Origin: an uncultured Gammaproteobacteria bacterium
Lineage (GTDB): Bacteria > Patescibacteriota > Microgenomatia > UBA10105 > UBA927
Length of the DNA stretch: 64,000 nt
Reading direction: 5' to 3'
NCBI GenBank assembly: GCA_964349125.1
Contig: CAYGFH010000001.1
Span: 562,107 to 626,106, forward strand
The notes below the pieces were generated by a model that did no database searches, was not told where the DNA came from, and saw only the letters and a program-made list of their open reading frames with translations. Made by a program: the position numbers and the translations under genes. This document shows, in pieces, positions 15,964 through 27,850 of the stretch (its first letter is position 1; each line of letters opens with the position of its first letter).

Positions 15964-17052
15964 TTATTCCAGATAATCTTTTAATTTCTTTGAGCGGGAC
16001 GGATGGCGAAGTTTTCTCAGTGCCTTTGCTTCGATCTGCCGGATACGCTCGCGGGTAACGCCAAACTGCGCGCCCACTTCCTCCAGCGTTCGGGGTCTGC
16101 CGTCTTCAAGTCCAAACCGCAGGACCAATACTTTTTTCTCGCGATCTGATAATGTCGTTAAGACTTCTTCCATGTGTTCTTTAAGAAGCTGTCTGCTGGT
16201 TTGTTCATATGGCGTAGGACCCGGATCAGAAATAAAATCACCCAAATGACTGTCTTCTTCGTCTCCGACAGGAGTTTCCAGAGATGTCGGCTCCTGGGAC
16301 ACTTTCATAATCTCGCGGACTTTCATGACATCCACTTCCATGACTTTTGCAATTTCCTCTGGTGTCGGTTCACGTCCCAAATCCTGCATGAGTCTCCGGC
16401 TCGCCCGCACAAACCTGTTGATGGTCTCAACCATATGTACAGGAATTCGGATGGTCCTGGCCTGGTCCGCAATGGCGCGGGTGATGGCCTGTCTGATCCA
16501 CCATGTGGCATACGTGGAGAATTTGTATCCTTTTCGCCAGTCGTATTTCTCGACAGCGCGGATAAGCCCCTGATTACCTTCTTGTATGAGGTCCAACAGA
16601 GACATACCCCGGCCGATATATTTTTTCGCTATGGAAACGACGAGTCTGAGGTTGGACTCGATCAGTTTTTTCTTGGCCTTTCGATCGCCCTTTTCATATT
16701 TCTTTGCAAGGGAAATTTCATCGGCAAATGTCAGAAGAGGTATTCGGCCAATCTCTTTTAAATACATGCGCACAGGGTCAGAGACACCTTCACTGGATGC
16801 TTTCACCAATGCTTCTATTTCTTTCTCAAGTTCCACGATACTCTTTGAGGATTCTTTATCTCCGTCCTGTGTGGTGGTTTCAAAGACATCGATCCCTTCC
16901 TGTATAAGGGTGTTACACAACTGGTCGAGTTCTTTGATATGCTCTTCTGGTTTGGGGAAAAGGAAGAGGATGTCTTCCTGTGTTACAAATCCGTTTTCTT
17001 TACCTTCGCGTATAAGGTCAGCAACTGTCGCAAGATTTTTTTGTTTAGCCAT
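15964..17052 (-). CDS. rpoD: RNA polymerase sigma factor RpoD (primary sigma-70)
   Basis: Region 2.4 [27 protein letters not shown] plus a region 4 HTH. Acidic N-terminus. Confidence 0.9.
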
Positions 17053-20557: not shown

Positions 20558-21811
20558 TCATGATGATGCGGCATGTTTGCCGGCAATCCAGCCGGTCGCC
20601 CATCCCCAGGATAAATTGAATCCGCCGACAGCGCCGTCAACGTCCAGTATCTCTCCGGCAAAAAACAGTCCCGGTGTGAGGCGTGATTGCATAGTGTTTG
20701 GATCTACGTCACTCAGAGATACTCCGCCTGCGGTAAACTCTCCCTCGTTCCATCCCCGGGTTGCCTCTACAGGTGATTCAAACGAATAGAGCATCGCACA
20801 GATTGCTTGTTTATCCTCGGGTGACAGTTCATTTGCTATTTTTTCCTTCGGAAATTTTAATGCTGCACACACCCCTCCTGCAACTTTTTGCGTCACCAGT
20901 CCCCACAGACTTGCGGCAACGGAATACTGTGGGTACGCATGCCAACGTTTTTCAAGGATTGCCATAAGCGATTCTCCCGTTTCATCAGGGAAAAAGCACA
21001 GTCGCACAGAGCACCCCGCTTTGTGTTCCCGGTTTATACGTATAGAAAAATCCCGGCTTATATCAAATATTGCAGGCCCCGAAAATCCGTACTGGGTAAA
21101 CATCACATCCCCCTGTGCACTCGATAGTTCTGTTCCATCTATATATGAGGTAGCGCGCATCTCCATTTTTTCTCCCTGCAAAAAATGAGACAACACATTT
21201 TTAGATACCACGGGGACAGCACTCACCACAGGCTCTACAATGGTATGCCCAAAAGAAGCGGCGATGGTATATCCTGATCCGTCCGATCCGAGCGCGGGAT
21301 AGGTTTTTCCCCCTGCAGACACCACTATTCGTGAAGCGGTATATTCGCCTTTGGATGTGATGAGAATGAAGTGTTCTCCTTTGGTAATTGCTGTCACCGC
21401 TGTGTCGCAGTATATATCGATACGCAAAAACTTTAGATATTCCACTAGCATGTCGCGGATTGTTTTGGCGTGATCAATTTTTGGAAAAATTTTTCCTTTA
21501 CCTGTTTTTACTTCCAGATAGGTCGGCACTCCCAGCTCATCAAAAAAATGCATAATCTCGGAGTACCCGAACTTAGAAAATACCGTAGTGATGGCTGATT
21601 GGTCACCATGATAGTATCCGGATGGTCCGTTTTCCAGATTCACATTTGTCAGATTTCCGCGTCCAGCTCCTGCTGTCAGCAGTTTTCTGCCAAGTTCAAA
21701 TGTTCTATCAAGGATTGCGACACGACTTTCCGGGTTTTGTTTTTTCGCGGATATGGCAGCCATCATCCCTGCTGCACCGCCACCGATTATAATCACGTCA
21801 TACGTATTCAT
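20558..21811 (-). CDS. HI0933/BaiN-like FAD-dependent oxidoreductase (aminoacetone oxidase family)
   Basis: N-terminal Rossmann YDVIIIGGGAAGMMAA. The ~415-aa length and C-terminal region are typical of the HI0933 family. Confidence 0.7.
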   Translation of the reverse strand: MNTYDVIIIGGGAAGMMAAISAKKQNPESRVAILDRTFELGRKLLTAGAGRGNLTNVNLENGPSGYYHGDQSAITTVFSKFGYSEIMHFFDELGVPTYLEVKTGKGKIFPKIDHAKTIRDMLVEYLKFLRIDIYCDTAVTAITKGEHFILITSKGEYTASRIVVSAGGKTYPALGSDGSGYTIAASFGHTIVEPVVSAVPVVSKNVLSHFLQGEKMEMRATSYIDGTELSSAQGDVMFTQYGFSGPAIFDISRDFSIRINREHKAGCSVRLCFFPDETGESLMAILEKRWHAYPQYSVAASLWGLVTQKVAGGVCAALKFPKEKIANELSPEDKQAICAMLYSFESPVEATRGWNEGEFTAGGVSLSDVDPNTMQSRLTPGLFFAGEILDVDGAVGGFNLSWGWATGWIAGKHAASS

Positions 21812-21819
21812 ATTCTGTA

Positions 21820-21849
21820 TTGTATCAAGTCACAACGCATTGGTATAAT
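21820..21849 (+). promoter_or_regulatory. Near-consensus sigma-70 promoter, TTGTAT-18 nt-TATAAT
   Basis: Hexamers seen directly at 21820-21825 and 21844-21849. The ATG of a small uORF lies 7 nt downstream of the -10, implying a leaderless transcript. Confidence 0.45.
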
Positions 21850-21855
21850 ACCCGT

Positions 21856-21891
21856 ATGATACTCGTTTGCTGTTGTTGCCCTTCTTCATAG
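21856..21891 (+). CDS. Leaderless 11-codon uORF MILVCCCCPSS with four consecutive Cys codons (candidate attenuation leader peptide)
   Basis: The ATG starts at the predicted TSS. The codons are tgc tgt tgt tgc, followed by a stop and then a terminator hairpin. Confidence 0.35.
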   Translation: MILVCCCCPSS

Positions 21892-21922
21892 CGGTCGCTC
21901 TTGGCGAAGGGTAGTGTATGTA

Positions 21923-21944
21923 TATCCGCCGAGAGGCGGATTTT
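21923..21944 (+). terminator. Rho-independent terminator/attenuator hairpin ATCCGCC-GAGA-GGCGGAT followed by TTTT
   Basis: Perfect 7-bp GC-rich stem and T-tract. It lies between the Cys uORF and the LmbE-family gene. Confidence 0.5.
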
Positions 21945-22088
21945 TAGTGACTACTTAACGAATTCATTCATATGAATGAGTTTAGTAGGAACTATCCCCT
22001 GAAGCGAACATTCGTTTGTGTGGAGTAAATCGTAAAACGAATTTGAGCGGAGGGGGAAACAATATTAAATTTTTTATATGGAGGTTTT

Positions 22089-22803
22089 ATGCAAAAAGAA
22101 TATATGACAGTTGATAGCACATGGAAAGAAAAAGGCGCAGCATTTATACTCGCCCATCCTGACGATGAGGCATTATTTTTCGGCATGATGGAGTGTCTTT
22201 GTTGACGCCGGCGTCCCGGTCACTGTCATTCTCATGACCCTCGGAGAAATGGGAATACAAAAACATATGGTCGATGTACTCCCCGACCAGATGAAAGAAA
22301 TTCGTAGGCACGAATTTTCCCGGGCGATGCGATACTTCAGATCGACGGGAATTGCTCTGGATGCGGGTGATTTGAGTCTGCATAGATATGACGAGGATTC
22401 CCTCATAACGTCCGTGCTCAAGCCAGTTCGTGAAGAGGATTTTGGTGTGCTGTTTTCCTTCCGTCCGGAACCGACTCCCTTCGTGGATCATCCCGACCAT
22501 GATAAGACAGGGCATATCGCACGATTTGTTGCTGCAGCGTCGGATGTGGAACATTTTCATCCCGAAATTTCATCTACGGAAAGTAGGCCGAATCTGTTTT
22601 TACTTACCCATCAGGTAGATTCAGCCACCCATATACTTCCCGTATCATGGGCTACCAAACAACATAGGCTTTCCTATCTGGAAGGGTTTTATCCGTCTCA
22701 GTTCCCGACAGAATCTATTGCATCAAGCGGCGTCATATTTGAACGGCTTTCGACACATGAAGGGATAGAGGGAAACGCAGAGCTCTACATGCAAATTCGA
22801 TAG
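22089..22803 (+). pseudogene. LmbE/PIG-L-family N-acetylglucosaminyl deacetylase (BshB/MshB-like), interrupted by a +1 frameshift near 22197-22205
   Basis: The N-terminal 38 codons (frame 0) end ...AHPDDEALFFGMMECLC*, which contains the LmbE AHPDDE hallmark. The continuation VDAGVPVTVILMTLGEMG... is in the +1 frame (ORF 22234..22803). The break is at a T-run, cttTgtt. Confidence 0.6.
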
Positions 22804-22867
22804 ATACATCCGTACTCACCGTATGAAACCGGGATTGGATTTTTTTTAAATCCGAAATACCAAAAAT

Positions 22868-22905
22868 AAGAAGGTGAAGCGGATTTCACTTCACCTTCTT
22901 TTGTT
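22868..22905. terminator. Bidirectional Rho-independent terminator (12-bp perfect stem AAGAAGGTGAAG / CTTCACCTTCTT)
   Basis: Perfect inverted repeat with T-rich flanks on both strands. It lies between the convergent LmbE-like gene and a small minus-strand ORF. Confidence 0.6.
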
Positions 22906-25055: not shown

Positions 25056-25898
25056 TTATTTTTTCGAATCGATATATTTTTTTGCAACTTTAACCGCTAT
25101 ACTACCGCCGGGGATCAGTAGTCCCGCCGCATCTGCACCCACATCAAATAAAAAGTTGGGATCCAGTACCTTGCCCATGTATTCGGAAAATACCCGACTC
25201 CCTGTGGATACTGTTCCCGTCAGTCCGTCTACCTCAACGATTGCGTCTTTACGTTTTGTTTTCCAGGTATATTGAAATGCGTAGACGGGATGATAATACA
25301 AATCCACGCATGTTACCTCGACTGCTTCCTCATGAATTGTATCCGCCTGAATTCCTTTTATCATTTTGGACAATGAGTCACGCATGATGCCGCTGACCCG
25401 CGATTGTGGAGGGACAATGATTGCGTCTTTTCCAACAATCTTTTCCAGTGTGGTTGTCACAAGCGTTGGAAACAAAGAGACATAGTCCTTGAGCGACGGA
25501 TTTGTTTTTCCGCTCACGCCTTCCACAAATACTTCATCTGATTCTTCCTGTACACAGTGCTCTACGACCGGGAAATGAAAGTGGCCGCTACTTACTTCAA
25601 ATTTAGTTTTTTCATACGTGACTGCTTTCACGTGTTTCTCGCTCGCGGGAATCTGGTAATCATGGGTACGGTCGTACACATAGCGGGCTTTTGCCGCCAC
25701 GTGCCAAAACGGTTGGAACCGGTGTTCTGAATATGTGAGTTCAAAATCCTCATCCTTCGGTTTAGAAAATAAACTTGCCACCTGATTCATGGCACCAAAT
25801 GCAGAGAGCTTTTTATCCCATGCTTTTTTCTTAGCATCCTCAAATGAAAGCTGATCAGTAAATACGAGGATACGCTGTGGTGCTACGTTTATTTCCAT
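25056..25898 (-). CDS. Hypothetical protein
   Basis: 280-aa ORF with no recognisable motif. It is last in the ArsR-Grx-rhodanese gene string. Confidence 0.3.
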   Translation of the reverse strand: MEINVAPQRILVFTDQLSFEDAKKKAWDKKLSAFGAMNQVASLFSKPKDEDFELTYSEHRFQPFWHVAAKARYVYDRTHDYQIPASEKHVKAVTYEKTKFEVSSGHFHFPVVEHCVQEESDEVFVEGVSGKTNPSLKDYVSLFPTLVTTTLEKIVGKDAIIVPPQSRVSGIMRDSLSKMIKGIQADTIHEEAVEVTCVDLYYHPVYAFQYTWKTKRKDAIVEVDGLTGTVSTGSRVFSEYMGKVLDPNFLFDVGADAAGLLIPGGSIAVKVAKKYIDSKK

Positions 25899-25917
25899 GC
25901 GTTCAGTATAGCGTACT

Positions 25918-26259
25918 TCAACTCACAGGGAAATATTTTGCCCGCCATGCCAACAGGCCGTGATTCATATGGAACACATTCGTGTATCCCAACTTTTGCA
26001 TCATACTGACGGCGACACTGCTTCTGGCTCCGCTTAAGCAGTACACATATATTTTATCCTGCTTTTTTGGGATGAGTGCCTCCACGGAGCGTGAGACATC
26101 TTCAACGGAACAGTTGATACTCCCCTCCAGTTTTCCTCTGGAAAATTCTCCGGAGGTTCGGACATCCAGGATCACACACGCCTCTTTCGTATCCATAGCG
26201 TGCTTCACATCCTCGGCTTCGACTGTCGGCACTTCTGGCTCGTTAAATCCAAATAGCAT
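25918..26259 (-). CDS. Rhodanese-domain sulfurtransferase
   Basis: Active-site loop CLSGARS (the CxxGxRS motif). Confidence 0.75.
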   Translation of the reverse strand: MLFGFNEPEVPTVEAEDVKHAMDTKEACVILDVRTSGEFSRGKLEGSINCSVEDVSRSVEALIPKKQDKIYVYCLSGARSSVAVSMMQKLGYTNVFHMNHGLLAWRAKYFPVS

Positions 26260-26268
26260 AGTTATATT

Positions 26269-26523
26269 TTAAATACCCAACATATATGAGAGTTGCGGCG
26301 GGTTAAATCCTACCAAAAATTCAGGTTTTCGGTCTGGGTACTGTACTTCGATAACTGGCACACCCATCTGCCCTGTCTTTTTTACCATATCGGCAGCTGC
26401 CTGTTGGTCTTCATCAACTAATACTTTGGTGAATGCTATTTTTTTATTGGTTAACCAGTCTGCAGCCATTGTGCAATACGGGCATGTTTTTGTAGCATAA
26501 ACGATAATGTTTGAATAATTCAT
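26269..26523 (-). CDS. Glutaredoxin-like protein (NrdH/Grx family)
   Basis: CPYC redox motif (KTCPYCTMA) on an ~80-aa thioredoxin fold. Confidence 0.65.
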   Translation of the reverse strand: MNYSNIIVYATKTCPYCTMAADWLTNKKIAFTKVLVDEDQQAAADMVKKTGQMGVPVIEVQYPDRKPEFLVGFNPPQLSYMLGI

Positions 26524-26786
26524 ACAACCTCACTTTCTAATGTTACTAATTGTTTACTAATATGTGCGGCTTTCGGATACCGGAGCGAATAATACACCTG
26601 TTTTCCTTCTTTTTTGGAAGTCACTAACCGTGCCTCCTTCAGTTTTGCCAAATGCTGGGAAACCGCAGATTGAGATAATCCACAAGTGGCGATAATTTCA
26701 CTCACATTCTTCGACTTCTGTTCCAAACAAAGAAGTAATTTTGTCCGAACTTTATTTCCAAATGCGCAGTAGATATCGGCTGACAT
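26520..26786 (-). CDS. ArsR/SmtB-family transcriptional regulator
   Basis: Winged HTH VSEIIATCGLSQSAVSQHLAKLKEARLV. Overlaps the Grx gene by 4 nt. Confidence 0.75.
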   Translation of the reverse strand: MSADIYCAFGNKVRTKLLLCLEQKSKNVSEIIATCGLSQSAVSQHLAKLKEARLVTSKKEGKQVYYSLRYPKAAHISKQLVTLESEVV

Positions 26787-26790
26787 GAAT

Positions 26791-26814
26791 ATATATTAGC
26801 ATACGCTAATATAT
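26791..26814. promoter_or_regulatory. Putative ArsR operator: perfect 10-4-10 inverted repeat ATATATTAGC-ATAC-GCTAATATAT just upstream of the arsR-like start
   Basis: Seen directly. It begins 5 nt upstream of the start codon. Confidence 0.45.
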
Positions 26815-26828
26815 TGTCAAGCGGTACG

Positions 26829-27323
26829 TTACTTCCGCATGCGTCCCCACCCTTCCCCCCGTGGATGTGTGGTATTTTGGGTATTTTCCTGTTGATACAG
26901 TCGTTGCATAGGGCCCTGTCTCGACCAAAAAGTTGTCATGCCAGTTGCATCCATAAGCCACCCCGCCAGTACGACAGCAGCGATCAACGATAGGATTATC
27001 ATGGTGAAATTCTTTTTATACGAAACATCATATTGTTTCAAAAACCATACCCCGCTTGCTATGCCCAATACAGCCAACAGTGGTGCCCACCAGGGAAAAC
27101 TGGAAATGAGTTGTTGGAATCGCACAGCTCCCATTGGTCCATGAGTTCGAAGAGAAAATGCGACGATACTTACCAAAAATACGGAGGCAATTATTGAAGC
27201 GCCAATTCCGATGATGAGTGCCAGTGACCCCACGACAAAATACCACCGCGGTTTCATAGACACACGCCCGCTTAGGATCTGTTTCATCACCGCTTCTTTT
27301 ATGATATGTTTCGTTTTTGACAT
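26829..27323 (-). CDS. Membrane protein, putative anti-sigma factor partner of the upstream ECF sigma
   Basis: Multi-TM ORF overlapping the ECF sigma gene by 25 nt. Assignment is by position only. Confidence 0.3.
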   Translation of the reverse strand: MSKTKHIIKEAVMKQILSGRVSMKPRWYFVVGSLALIIGIGASIIASVFLVSIVAFSLRTHGPMGAVRFQQLISSFPWWAPLLAVLGIASGVWFLKQYDVSYKKNFTMIILSLIAAVVLAGWLMDATGMTTFWSRQGPMQRLYQQENTQNTTHPRGEGWGRMRK

Positions 27324-27850
27324 AATGCTTTCATCATGGCTTTCGCCCGGTTTATACGCGTTGCTACCGTTCCCATTGGGATTCGCAGCACATCACTCAC
27401 GTCCTCATACGATAGCTCCTCCAAATAAAAAAGTATGAGCGGTTGACTATAGAGATCAGGCATCTGAGATAAACACCATGACGCCCCCAGTATTCGTTCT
27501 TTCGTTATATATTCTGATTCAATGTGCTCGTCGCTTTGGAGCTCCCTCTCCGTAAACAGCGGCACTTCCCTCTTATATTTTTTTATACTGTTAACTGCTT
27601 CATTGTGCACTATTCTGTATATCCAGCTGCTGAACGTTTTTTTCGTATCAAATCCCTGTAAGTTCGTATACGCTTTTATGAATGAATCCTCTACGACGTC
27701 TGTTGCGACATCTTCCCGGTGCACAAGAGTTACGGCGTAGCGTATGAGTTTTTTTTCGTACCGGTCTATAACCTCCGAAAACAACTCGTGCTCACCGTTT
27801 CGTATACGGATCACCAACTCGCAATCGGTTTCTCTCGTGTGATCAGACAT
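27299..27850 (-). CDS. ECF-type RNA polymerase sigma-70 family factor
   Basis: Region 2 (FIKAYTNLQGFD) and region 4 HTH (LSYEDVSDVLRIPMGTVATRINRA). Confidence 0.8.
   Translation of the reverse strand: MSDHTRETDCELVIRIRNGEHELFSEVIDRYEKKLIRYAVTLVHREDVATDVVEDSFIKAYTNLQGFDTKKTFSSWIYRIVHNEAVNSIKKYKREVPLFTERELQSDEHIESEYITKERILGASWCLSQMPDLYSQPLILFYLEELSYEDVSDVLRIPMGTVATRINRAKAMMKALCQKRNIS

Follow-up and report, generated by a model that had tools for sequence, protein, structure and literature searches.

In prfB, the site of programmed +1 frameshifting consists of a Shine-Dalgarno (SD)-like element, a spacer of 3 nt, and the slippery sequence CTTT, with UUU_U as a rare variant, and prfB genes without a frameshift are also without both elements of this cassette (PMC12421855). 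The +1 slips of Ty1 and of 'hungry' codons are summarized in a 2016 review of recoding, according to which starved codons promote +1 shifts and frameshifting at such codons could give starvation-specific trans-frame proteins, of which 'no examples are known' (PMC5009743). In mycobacteria, polycysteine leaderless short open reading frames (sORFs) respond to cysteine and define a 'Cys ribulon', one target operon of which holds the thiol-pathway gene mshA (Canestrari et al. 2020, 10.1101/834739). Here we describe a locus in a 64-kb stretch of bacterial DNA (hereafter, the window: 64,000 nt, positions 562,107–626,106 of contig CAYGFH010000001.1, assembly GCA_964349125.1) in which a hydrolase gene of the PIG-L/LmbE superfamily is interrupted by a +1 frameshift at a prfB-like cassette and is preceded by an apparently leaderless upstream open reading frame (uORF) with four tandem Cys codons and by an intrinsic terminator. 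All features of this leader and gene lie on the plus (+) strand, and coordinates are those of the window. We estimate a probability of about 60% that the supply of charged tRNA-Cys sets two gates on the expression of this Cys-free hydrolase, as its sequence and those of its relatives suggest. The frameshift is our main result and is more novel than the attenuator.

The frameshift site and its conservation

The hydrolase gene starts at ATG 22089, behind the SD sequence GGAGG (22080–22084), which lies ~135 nt downstream of the terminator; very few other genes of the window are led by an SD. Its 0 frame comprises only 38 codons and a UGA (22089–22205; TGA at 22203–22205), encodes the AHPDDE catalytic/metal-binding motif, and ends in AHPDDEALFFGMMECLC. 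The +1 frame continues as VDAGVPVTVILMTLGEMG... for 200 codons to its stop (22201–22803) and encodes the HPDH motif. The two motifs thus stand in different frames, AHPDD(E) in frame 0 and HPDH in +1, and an active enzyme depends on the shift. At the junction stands the cassette GGAG UGU CUU UGU (22190–22202), which is made up of an SD-like element, a 3-nt spacer (the E-site codon), the slippery CUU_U (P site), and the Cys codon UGU (A site). YUU_U is the only slippery position within the short segment that is open in both frames. The motif GGAGNNNYTTTGT occurs once in the 64-kb window, and no other credible cassette of this kind was found there. The trans-frame product is 237 aa long with the junction ..MMECL/VDAG.. 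(...FFGMMECL-VDAGVPVTVILMTLGEMGIQK); it aligns to the intact homolog P0034 (..TILQL/KKAG..) with no gap at the junction, and its alignment to PDB entry 3wl4 is continuous through the same point. An initial annotation of this DNA had placed a +1 frameshift in a T-run here and offered a pseudogene, a sequencing error, or a slippery site as its cause. The shift is present, although the 'T-run' is only CTTT, and of the three causes the slippery site stands, the other two giving way to the conservation of the break in 20 loci and to selection in both frames.

Some of the related loci came from metagenome scans at the Joint Genome Institute (JGI): a first scan with a close-clade alignment found no loci, and a 12-sequence alignment led to 17 loci, with L031 being an unrelated GC-rich match. 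One locus, L009 (P0002), was uninformative for the site: the first ~30 nt of its 696-nt contig (1.8x coverage) are unlike the family and were treated as a contig-end artifact. In the closest genome relative, L001 from GTDB (76% aa identity), the break falls at identical nucleotides, and the 13-mer GGAGTGTCTTTGT is identical in nine distinct close loci, with variation at the third positions of the flanking codons. A total of 20 distinct loci, including proteins that are only ~30–45% identical and are encoded in unrelated gene neighborhoods, conform to [GGAG]-UNU-YUU-UGU (GGAG: 18/20; CUU: 19/20; UUU: 1/20, in L019; UGU: 20/20). Among them, the 0-frame stop follows 2–4 codons past YUU, and in 10 of them no more than 9 nt ahead of the site are open in the +1 frame. 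Information content in the cassette columns is 1.5–2.0 bits, four synonymous positions included (the middle base of UNU is free), compared to an average of 0.66 bits at other upstream third positions, and third positions are invariant only at the cassette. The least-conserved codon phase changes from offset mod 3 = 2 upstream to offset mod 3 = 0 downstream and switches exactly at the site, showing that both halves are translated, each in its own frame. Purifying selection acts on both halves, again each in its own frame. Both intact loci for which DNA was read (L020 and L033) have neither GGAG nor CTTT at the equivalent position. As judged by comparison of the loci, the shift is conserved, under selection, and needed for the enzyme, and it is very probable that it is programmed as well as required.

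A pseudogene, or a sequencing or assembly error in a homopolymer, is almost certainly the wrong explanation, even though a single 1-nt break beside a T-run looks erroneous and gene callers split the gene. The identical break is found in 20 independent loci, which stem from different projects and were put together by different assemblers, and their divergence of 30–80% excludes one faulty template. In addition to the selection on both halves, the T-run measures only 3 nt, and the surroundings of the break are the most conserved part of the gene, synonymous positions included. It is also highly improbable that the gene is genuinely split, so that an N-terminal peptide of 38 aa and a C-terminal protein with its own start would assemble non-covalently and need no shift. 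Split enzymes exist, and gene callers do find an ATG at 22234 for a 189-aa ORF, but this Met is not conserved (Leu in L006, L014, L015, and others), and neither a start codon nor an SD stands before the conserved +1-frame segment FVDAGVPVTVIL, which itself is upstream of this Met. The late opening of the +1 frame in half of the loci leaves no more than 9 nt before the slippery site, and the homologs, intact proteins as well as PDB entries, run through the region as one chain.

Two other routes to the +1 frame were considered and rejected. Stop-dependent shifting on UGU_UGA fails because the codon after UGU is CGA or CAA, not a stop, in seven loci, and transcriptional slippage fails because the run holds only 3 T (5 in L019).

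The hydrolase family

The gene matches Pfam family PF02585 with 64.3 bits (cut-off 28.2; E = 2e-17), and its trans-frame product contains both the AHPDD and the HPDH motif. Its scores against the NCBIfam models of thiol-pathway members are far lower than the respective cut-offs (BshB2: 36.2 vs 195; BshB1: 22.8 vs 182.5; MshB: 21.9 vs 224; Mca: 18.1 vs 277). By these profile comparisons, the enzyme is a member of the PIG-L/LmbE superfamily and not an ortholog of BshB or MshB, so that the superfamily named in the initial annotation holds and its 'BshB/MshB-like' label does not. Among solved structures, that of an archaeal diacetylchitobiose deacetylase comes nearest, with an E-value of only 3e-6, and a single-sequence AlphaFold model of the trans-frame protein was too poor for use (predicted local distance difference test score of 33). 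The locus points to an uncharacterized hydrolase, which probably works in the cysteine or thiol economy; our guess at its substrate would be a Cys-containing or thiol-pathway compound, on which it would act as a deacetylase or amidase.

An exhaustive hidden Markov model search of 1.84 billion proteins delimited the family as a small separate clade with 67 representatives. Their N-termini fall into three groups: intact proteins of ~240–260 aa with AHPDDE, starts in the +1 frame, and truncated gene calls. The +1-frame starts make up at least 13 additional clusters (at 50% identity) and bear the signature ..[VAI]FV[DEK].., equivalent to UUU GUN, or NUU UGU when read in frame 0. When the full-length product was used as the query against a database of 5.8 billion protein clusters, nine significant homologs were found, covering only its C-terminal 75–85%. 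With a junction-spanning query, the sole match to the N-terminus was a cluster of the 38-aa ORF (P0014), and no unshifted close homolog was found among the protein clusters. Public databases misannotate this family systematically (P0001–P0009, P0014, and P0016–P0072), either as two pieces, an ORF of 38 aa and a 'PIG-L' protein truncated to 170–220 aa, or with spurious +1-frame starts.

Cysteine at the shift site and in the product

At the position equivalent to the A-site UGU, intact relatives have no conserved residue (K, L, Q, T, and R all occur). A UGU that is invariant in the shifted genes and corresponds to no conserved residue in the intact ones implies a constraint at the nucleotide or decoding level. 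This codon is invariant among lineages of widely differing base composition. The products themselves are nearly devoid of cysteine: among 19 reconstructed trans-frame proteins, 17 are Cys-free outside the cassette (seven have none at all, 10 have only that of the cassette spacer codon), and the other two have one additional residue. Cys content in the family is 0.19–0.25%, whereas it is 0.9% in the ORFs of the window. A ribosome that shifts never decodes the UGU, and therefore the enzyme of the UAU and UCU clades could be made without any Cys-tRNA. The shifted gene, moreover, sits behind a poly-Cys leader (see below). In the work of Curran and Yarus (1989), the stop codon of the release factor 2 (RF2) site was reportedly replaced by sense codons, where frameshifting competed with the rate of aminoacyl-tRNA selection. 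On balance, we lean toward a frameshift that is itself tuned by Cys-tRNA.

The leader: promoter, uORF, and probable attenuator

Upstream of the gene, a TATAAT hexamer (21844–21849) forms the end of an extended -10 element, TGgTATAAT (21841–21849), and is separated by 18 nt from the -35-like hexamer TTGTAT (21820–21825). The latter is kept in L001, L002, L004, L007, and L012. A near-consensus promoter had been proposed for these elements, which is apt for the perfect -10 with its TGn extension; the -35 agrees with TTGACA at only 3/6 positions, and the promoter was not listed by a consensus scan. The uORF (21856–21891; stop codon TAG at 21889–21891) encodes the 11-residue peptide MILVCCCCPSS, as noted in the initial annotation. 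No SD precedes it, its ATG at 21856 is the predicted transcription start, and its four tandem Cys codons, TGC TGT TGT TGC (21868–21879), are the proposed site of ribosome stalling. The distance from the end of the -10-like hexamer to the start of the uORF is 6–8 nt in 13 loci (the window, L001–L004, L007, L012, L014, L015, L016, L019, L021, and L033), with two exceptions (L020: 13 nt; L032: ~9 nt). No SD precedes the uORF start codons in the 13 loci.

Every locus with upstream DNA read, including both intact-gene relatives, has a uORF with 2–4 consecutive Cys codons, and this run is the sole peptide feature common to all leaders, since the remainder of the peptide differs among clades. Uninterrupted up to their stop codons, the close-clade peptides are MIYMLCCCPSS, MTIQRCCCPSS, MTYTLCCCPSS, and MTLVCCCCPSS, and those of other loci are MTMFSCCC (L003), MISTSSCCCLLDC (L014), MKKTKLFTNCCINPLK (L015), MNSKK[TI]TLSCCVRPKL (L016 and L018), MKISRFIHCCHKGTA (L019), MESRLENTFVCCCTSQKVGRYIC (L032), and, in another homolog, MNSKKTTLSCCVRPKL. 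L021–L029 share M/L-[VI]-CCT[SA]C (e.g., MVCCTSC), and the intact-gene relatives have MPKKLFSHNSCCCPSQ... (L020) and MISICCCCLSP (L033). Some uORFs of L025–L029 begin with TTG, and the Cys frame of L029 is without a canonical start codon. Among short ATG-initiated ORFs on both strands of the window, just one other has a run of three or more Cys codons, and its position is antisense within a gene; a second credible poly-Cys leader was thus not found on either strand of the 64 kb. The layout exceeds chance because the poly-Cys ORF and the shift motif are both rare in the window and recur in all related loci that were examined.

Leaderless mRNAs seem to be pervasive in this genome: of the 59 genes scored in the window, 20 have a TANNNT element whose end is 6–8 nt from the start codon on its upstream side (~4 expected by chance), and only five have an SD-like motif.

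Downstream of the uORF, the leader RNA contains segments with alternative pairing partners. Region 1 (21876–21892, with GCCCUUC at 21878–21884) is the 5' strand of an anti-antiterminator; it overlaps the 3' end of the uORF and would be covered by a ribosome on the Cys codons. Region 2 (21897–21914), composed of CUCUUGGCG (21898–21906) and GAAGGGU (21906–21912), can pair either with region 1 or with the 5' arm of the terminator. The intrinsic terminator, ATCCGCC-GAGA-GGCGGAT (21924–21945; 5' arm 21924–21930, loop 21931–21934, 3' arm 21935–21941, U-tract to 21945), folds with -12.6 kcal/mol and was also detected by a terminator scan. It is the 7-bp GC hairpin with a T-tract that had been noted 32 nt past the uORF stop; the gene was then put 130 nt beyond it, and its start is in fact ~143 nt past the T-tract.

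In the minimum-free-energy fold of the free window leader, nt 21–37 of the uORF RNA (region 1) pair with nt 42–59 (region 2). With the place of a Cys-stalled ribosome masked and the transcript cut short of the terminator 3' arm, the minimum-free-energy structure is the antiterminator (-17.2 kcal/mol), in which CUCUUGGCG (21898–21906) pairs with CGCCGAGAG (21927–21935), i.e., with the 5' arm and loop of the terminator. A ribosome at the uORF stop codon covers region 2 of the window leader. Masking of the Cys-stalled ribosome in silico made the antiterminator the best structure in 15 of 17 folded leaders; the two others, L016 and L032, were unscored due to a failed automatic terminator call, and their full folds show the same four complementary regions. 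Masking at the stop codon caused the antiterminator to be lost or weakened in all 11 leaders that were folded in this way. L003 has no terminator and was left out of the masked folding. The equilibrium fold of the full leader always keeps the terminator, and the antiterminator was seen only in co-transcriptional, ribosome-masked folds.

The pairing is maintained despite sequence change, for example as CUUGGGU:ACCCAAG in L015 and L018 and as GGGAGGU:ACCUCCC in L025, and changes in the terminator arms between the window and L001 clades preserve both the terminator and the antiterminator. Terminator stems vary by clade (CCGCC/GGCGG, CCCGUC/GACGGG, CCACC/GGUGG, and CCUCCC/GGGAGG), with hairpin and U-tract kept, and both are present in the other loci inspected, except for L003. 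In compact loci, the start codon of the gene lies 13–24 nt past the U-tract, which leaves no room for a further promoter and makes read-through the sole route of expression. By comparison among leaders, the architecture of uORF, terminator, and antiterminator is conserved, and the leader is probably a Cys-responsive terminator attenuator. Ribosome-mediated attenuation, the layout proposed in the initial annotation, also withstands what had been named as refuting it: the Cys codons recur in orthologous and distantly homologous leaders, region 2 has an antiterminator pairing with the terminator 5' arm and loop that is kept across clades, and the compact loci oblige read-through into the gene, as opposed to a stand-alone small RNA.

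The short transcript (21856 to ~21945) does have its own promoter and terminator, and Cys-rich micropeptides can bind metals, so we considered whether it encodes such a micropeptide, or acts as a small RNA, unrelated to the downstream gene. This is improbable. Outside the Cys run the peptide is not conserved between clades, whereas the antiterminator/anti-antiterminator complementarity is; the gene of compact loci has no promoter of its own in the 13–24 nt past the U-tract; and the uORF always accompanies this gene family, in differing neighborhoods.

Between the terminator and the SD of the window locus lies a structured, clade-specific spacer with two long hairpins (21947–22075; z = -4.5), which may be an inserted element. 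It is unique in the window. L004 and L012 have it in a form that is longer and variable, and L001, L002, L006, L007, and L014 lack it, their gene directly following the terminator. No Rfam family reached its gathering score anywhere in the window, and a permissive scan of 21700–22300 returned only sub-threshold matches (MicA, a Tetrahymena snoRNA, and others), which were taken as chance. The MicA match (22128–22202, +), which falls within the coding sequence and has its end on the frameshift cassette, is most likely due to chance (24 bits, gathering score 41; E = 0.19).

Proposed two-gate mechanism

At the first gate, the first nucleotide transcribed would be the A of the uORF's ATG, and translation of the leaderless peptide would follow. 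With plentiful Cys-tRNA, the ribosome would reach the UAG and cover region 2, the terminator (21924–21945) would form, and transcription would end. With scarce Cys-tRNA, a ribosome stalled on the Cys codons (21868–21879) would cover region 1 and leave region 2 to pair with the 5' arm of the terminator, so that RNA polymerase would read through. At the second gate, ribosomes on the read-through mRNA would start at the SD-led ATG 22089 and meet the cassette GGAG-UGU-CUU-UGU. Once CUU occupies the P site and UGU the A site, quick arrival of Cys-tRNA would keep the 0 frame, leading to UGA one codon on and to a 38-aa fragment. If UGU were left empty, the peptidyl-tRNA-Leu would slip from CUU to UUU, aided by pairing between GGAG and the anti-SD, spaced as in prfB, and +1 translation would give the 237-aa enzyme, a product that by sequence comparison is made essentially without cysteine.

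Several points weigh against this scheme. At equilibrium, the terminator together with a local hairpin is more stable than the antiterminator, so the model needs co-transcriptional kinetics. L003 has the uORF and no recognizable terminator, and its leader may use another output. The GGAG element is missing or displaced in L026, L028, and L032. The window clade has UGU as its E-site codon too, and one Cys is therefore incorporated before the shift. With 76 TGT vs 65 TGC in the window's ORFs, TGT cannot be called rare, and UGU could be intrinsically slow, wobble-read by a low-abundance tRNA, which would lead to a fixed ratio of shifting. It is not obviously adaptive to induce a thiol-pathway-like enzyme when Cys is low. 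Lastly, we infer the efficiency of the frameshift, and likewise the Cys dependence of both termination and frameshifting, from sequence.

The main rival explanation is that the shift is programmed and required but constitutive (a fixed-ratio, 'corrective' shift), with only the leader sensing Cys and with UGU serving as a slow wobble codon in a slip context. TGT being as frequent as TGC would suit this explanation, the SD-like element and slippery CUU_U could by themselves give basal shifting, and the intact relatives L020 and L033 manage with the uORF alone. We nevertheless regard it as rather unlikely. UGU occupies the A site in 20/20 loci, and by inference in at least 13 more clusters, of varied base composition at a position that is not constrained by the protein; the products are cysteine-free; a fixed-ratio shift would carry a cost with no regulatory benefit; and known cassettes of the same architecture, such as that of prfB, are sensors (PMC12421855). 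Our preferred reading thus remains a double dependence on charged tRNA-Cys, with the attenuator as its firmer half.

Genomic context

The gene is followed by a bidirectional terminator hairpin with a 14-bp stem (22866–22905) and T-runs on both strands, which is the likely 3' end of the transcript. Further downstream (25056–27850, minus strand), a conserved neighborhood, also found in L002, L003, and L033, encodes a 280-aa protein with no Pfam or NCBIfam match, a rhodanese, a glutaredoxin, an ArsR-type helix-turn-helix protein, and an extracytoplasmic function (ECF) sigma factor. This sulfur/redox neighborhood is retained beside both shifted and intact genes.

On the other side of the leader, a divergent gene for an HI0933-like flavoprotein (20558–21811, minus strand) also looks leaderless, with TGaTACAAT on the minus strand, 7 nt, and ATG. 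Its -10 element (TACAAT) overlaps the -35 of the uORF and vice versa, so that two extended -10 promoters stand back to back in a 44-nt gap (21812–21855), an arrangement kept in close relatives. In the AT-rich distant relatives L021–L024, the gene upstream of the leader resembles that of a PIN-domain protein, as judged by eye only.

The genome of the uncultured host has a GC content of ~43%, and the window encodes a 362-aa SigA (15964–17052) that aligns over its full length to SigA of Bacillus subtilis, Clostridioides difficile, and Staphylococcus aureus. The label 'Gammaproteobacteria' of L001 (CAYHHA010000002.1) is doubtful, being at odds with a Bacillus-like SigA.

Comparison with known systems

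To our knowledge, programmed frameshifts of the sensor type are few, with prfB sensing RF2 and antizyme sensing polyamines. The present site resembles prfB in its SD-like purine element, the 3-nt spacer, the Leu slip on CUU_U, a short 0-frame ORF at the N-terminus, and a functional protein that comes from the +1 frame. The rare prfB variant UUU_U has its counterpart in L019, and the intact homologs are, as in prfB, without GGAG and CTTT. In the seven loci with UAU as the spacer codon, the site reads GGAG-UAU-CUU-UG, which matches the Escherichia coli prfB sequence up to the last base. Unlike prfB, the A-site codon is UGU (Cys) in 20/20 loci and not UGA, so that a pause would report Cys-tRNA and not RF2, and the 0-frame stop comes 1–3 codons after the A-site codon. 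The product is a hydrolase of the PIG-L family instead of a translation factor, and the proposed signal is shortage of a metabolite and not the gene's own product.

With Ty1 (CUU-AGG-C) and with Gallant's 'hungry codon' shifting in E. coli, the site shares a P-site tRNA-Leu that slips by +1 on CUU ahead of a slow A-site sense codon. Ty1 relies on a constitutively rare tRNA and yields a fixed ratio, and the E. coli shifting at hungry codons is an error seen in the laboratory. We see an even chance that the locus is the first natural 'hungry-codon' programmed frameshift, with a Cys sense codon in a prfB-like cassette placed in series with a poly-Cys terminator as an AND gate made by ribosomes only. 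No paper was found in the literature on a frameshift in this PIG-L family or on a cysteine-dependent frameshift. If the proposal is true, this would be the first natural frameshift that senses shortage of an amino acid; the locus offers a concrete candidate for the long-standing idea of starvation-dependent frameshifting (PMC5009743). Because the cassette comprises only 13 nt, it can be moved into reporters, and the intact homologs without it are natural controls. The locus would also show how an apparently largely leaderless, SD-poor genome builds regulation from ribosome behavior alone.

The initial annotation was right to point to Cys-codon uORF attenuators of mycobacteria, in which polycysteine leaderless sORFs have been described (10.1101/834739). 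The locus resembles them in having an sORF with at least two consecutive Cys codons, which is predicted to be leaderless and the first cistron, and at which stalling would report Cys-tRNA and de-repress downstream genes. In contrast to the characterized mycobacterial case, which uses sequestration of the ribosome-binding site and translational attenuation (10.1101/834739), the output here appears to be an intrinsic terminator with an antiterminator, which places the locus outside the mycobacterial class of mechanism. It differs further in the second Cys-dependent step proposed inside the regulated gene and in its host, which is not a mycobacterium. If confirmed, Cys leader-peptide attenuation would extend beyond mycobacteria in a terminator-based form. 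In this respect the leader resembles trpL, hisL, leuL, thrL, pheL, and the ilv leaders, which likewise have four mutually exclusive RNA segments, with a stall masking segment 1 and a ribosome at the stop codon masking segment 2, and an intrinsic terminator ahead of the gene. It departs from these classical attenuators in being apparently leaderless and not SD-led, in having Cys as its amino acid, and in controlling a single hydrolase instead of an amino-acid biosynthesis operon.

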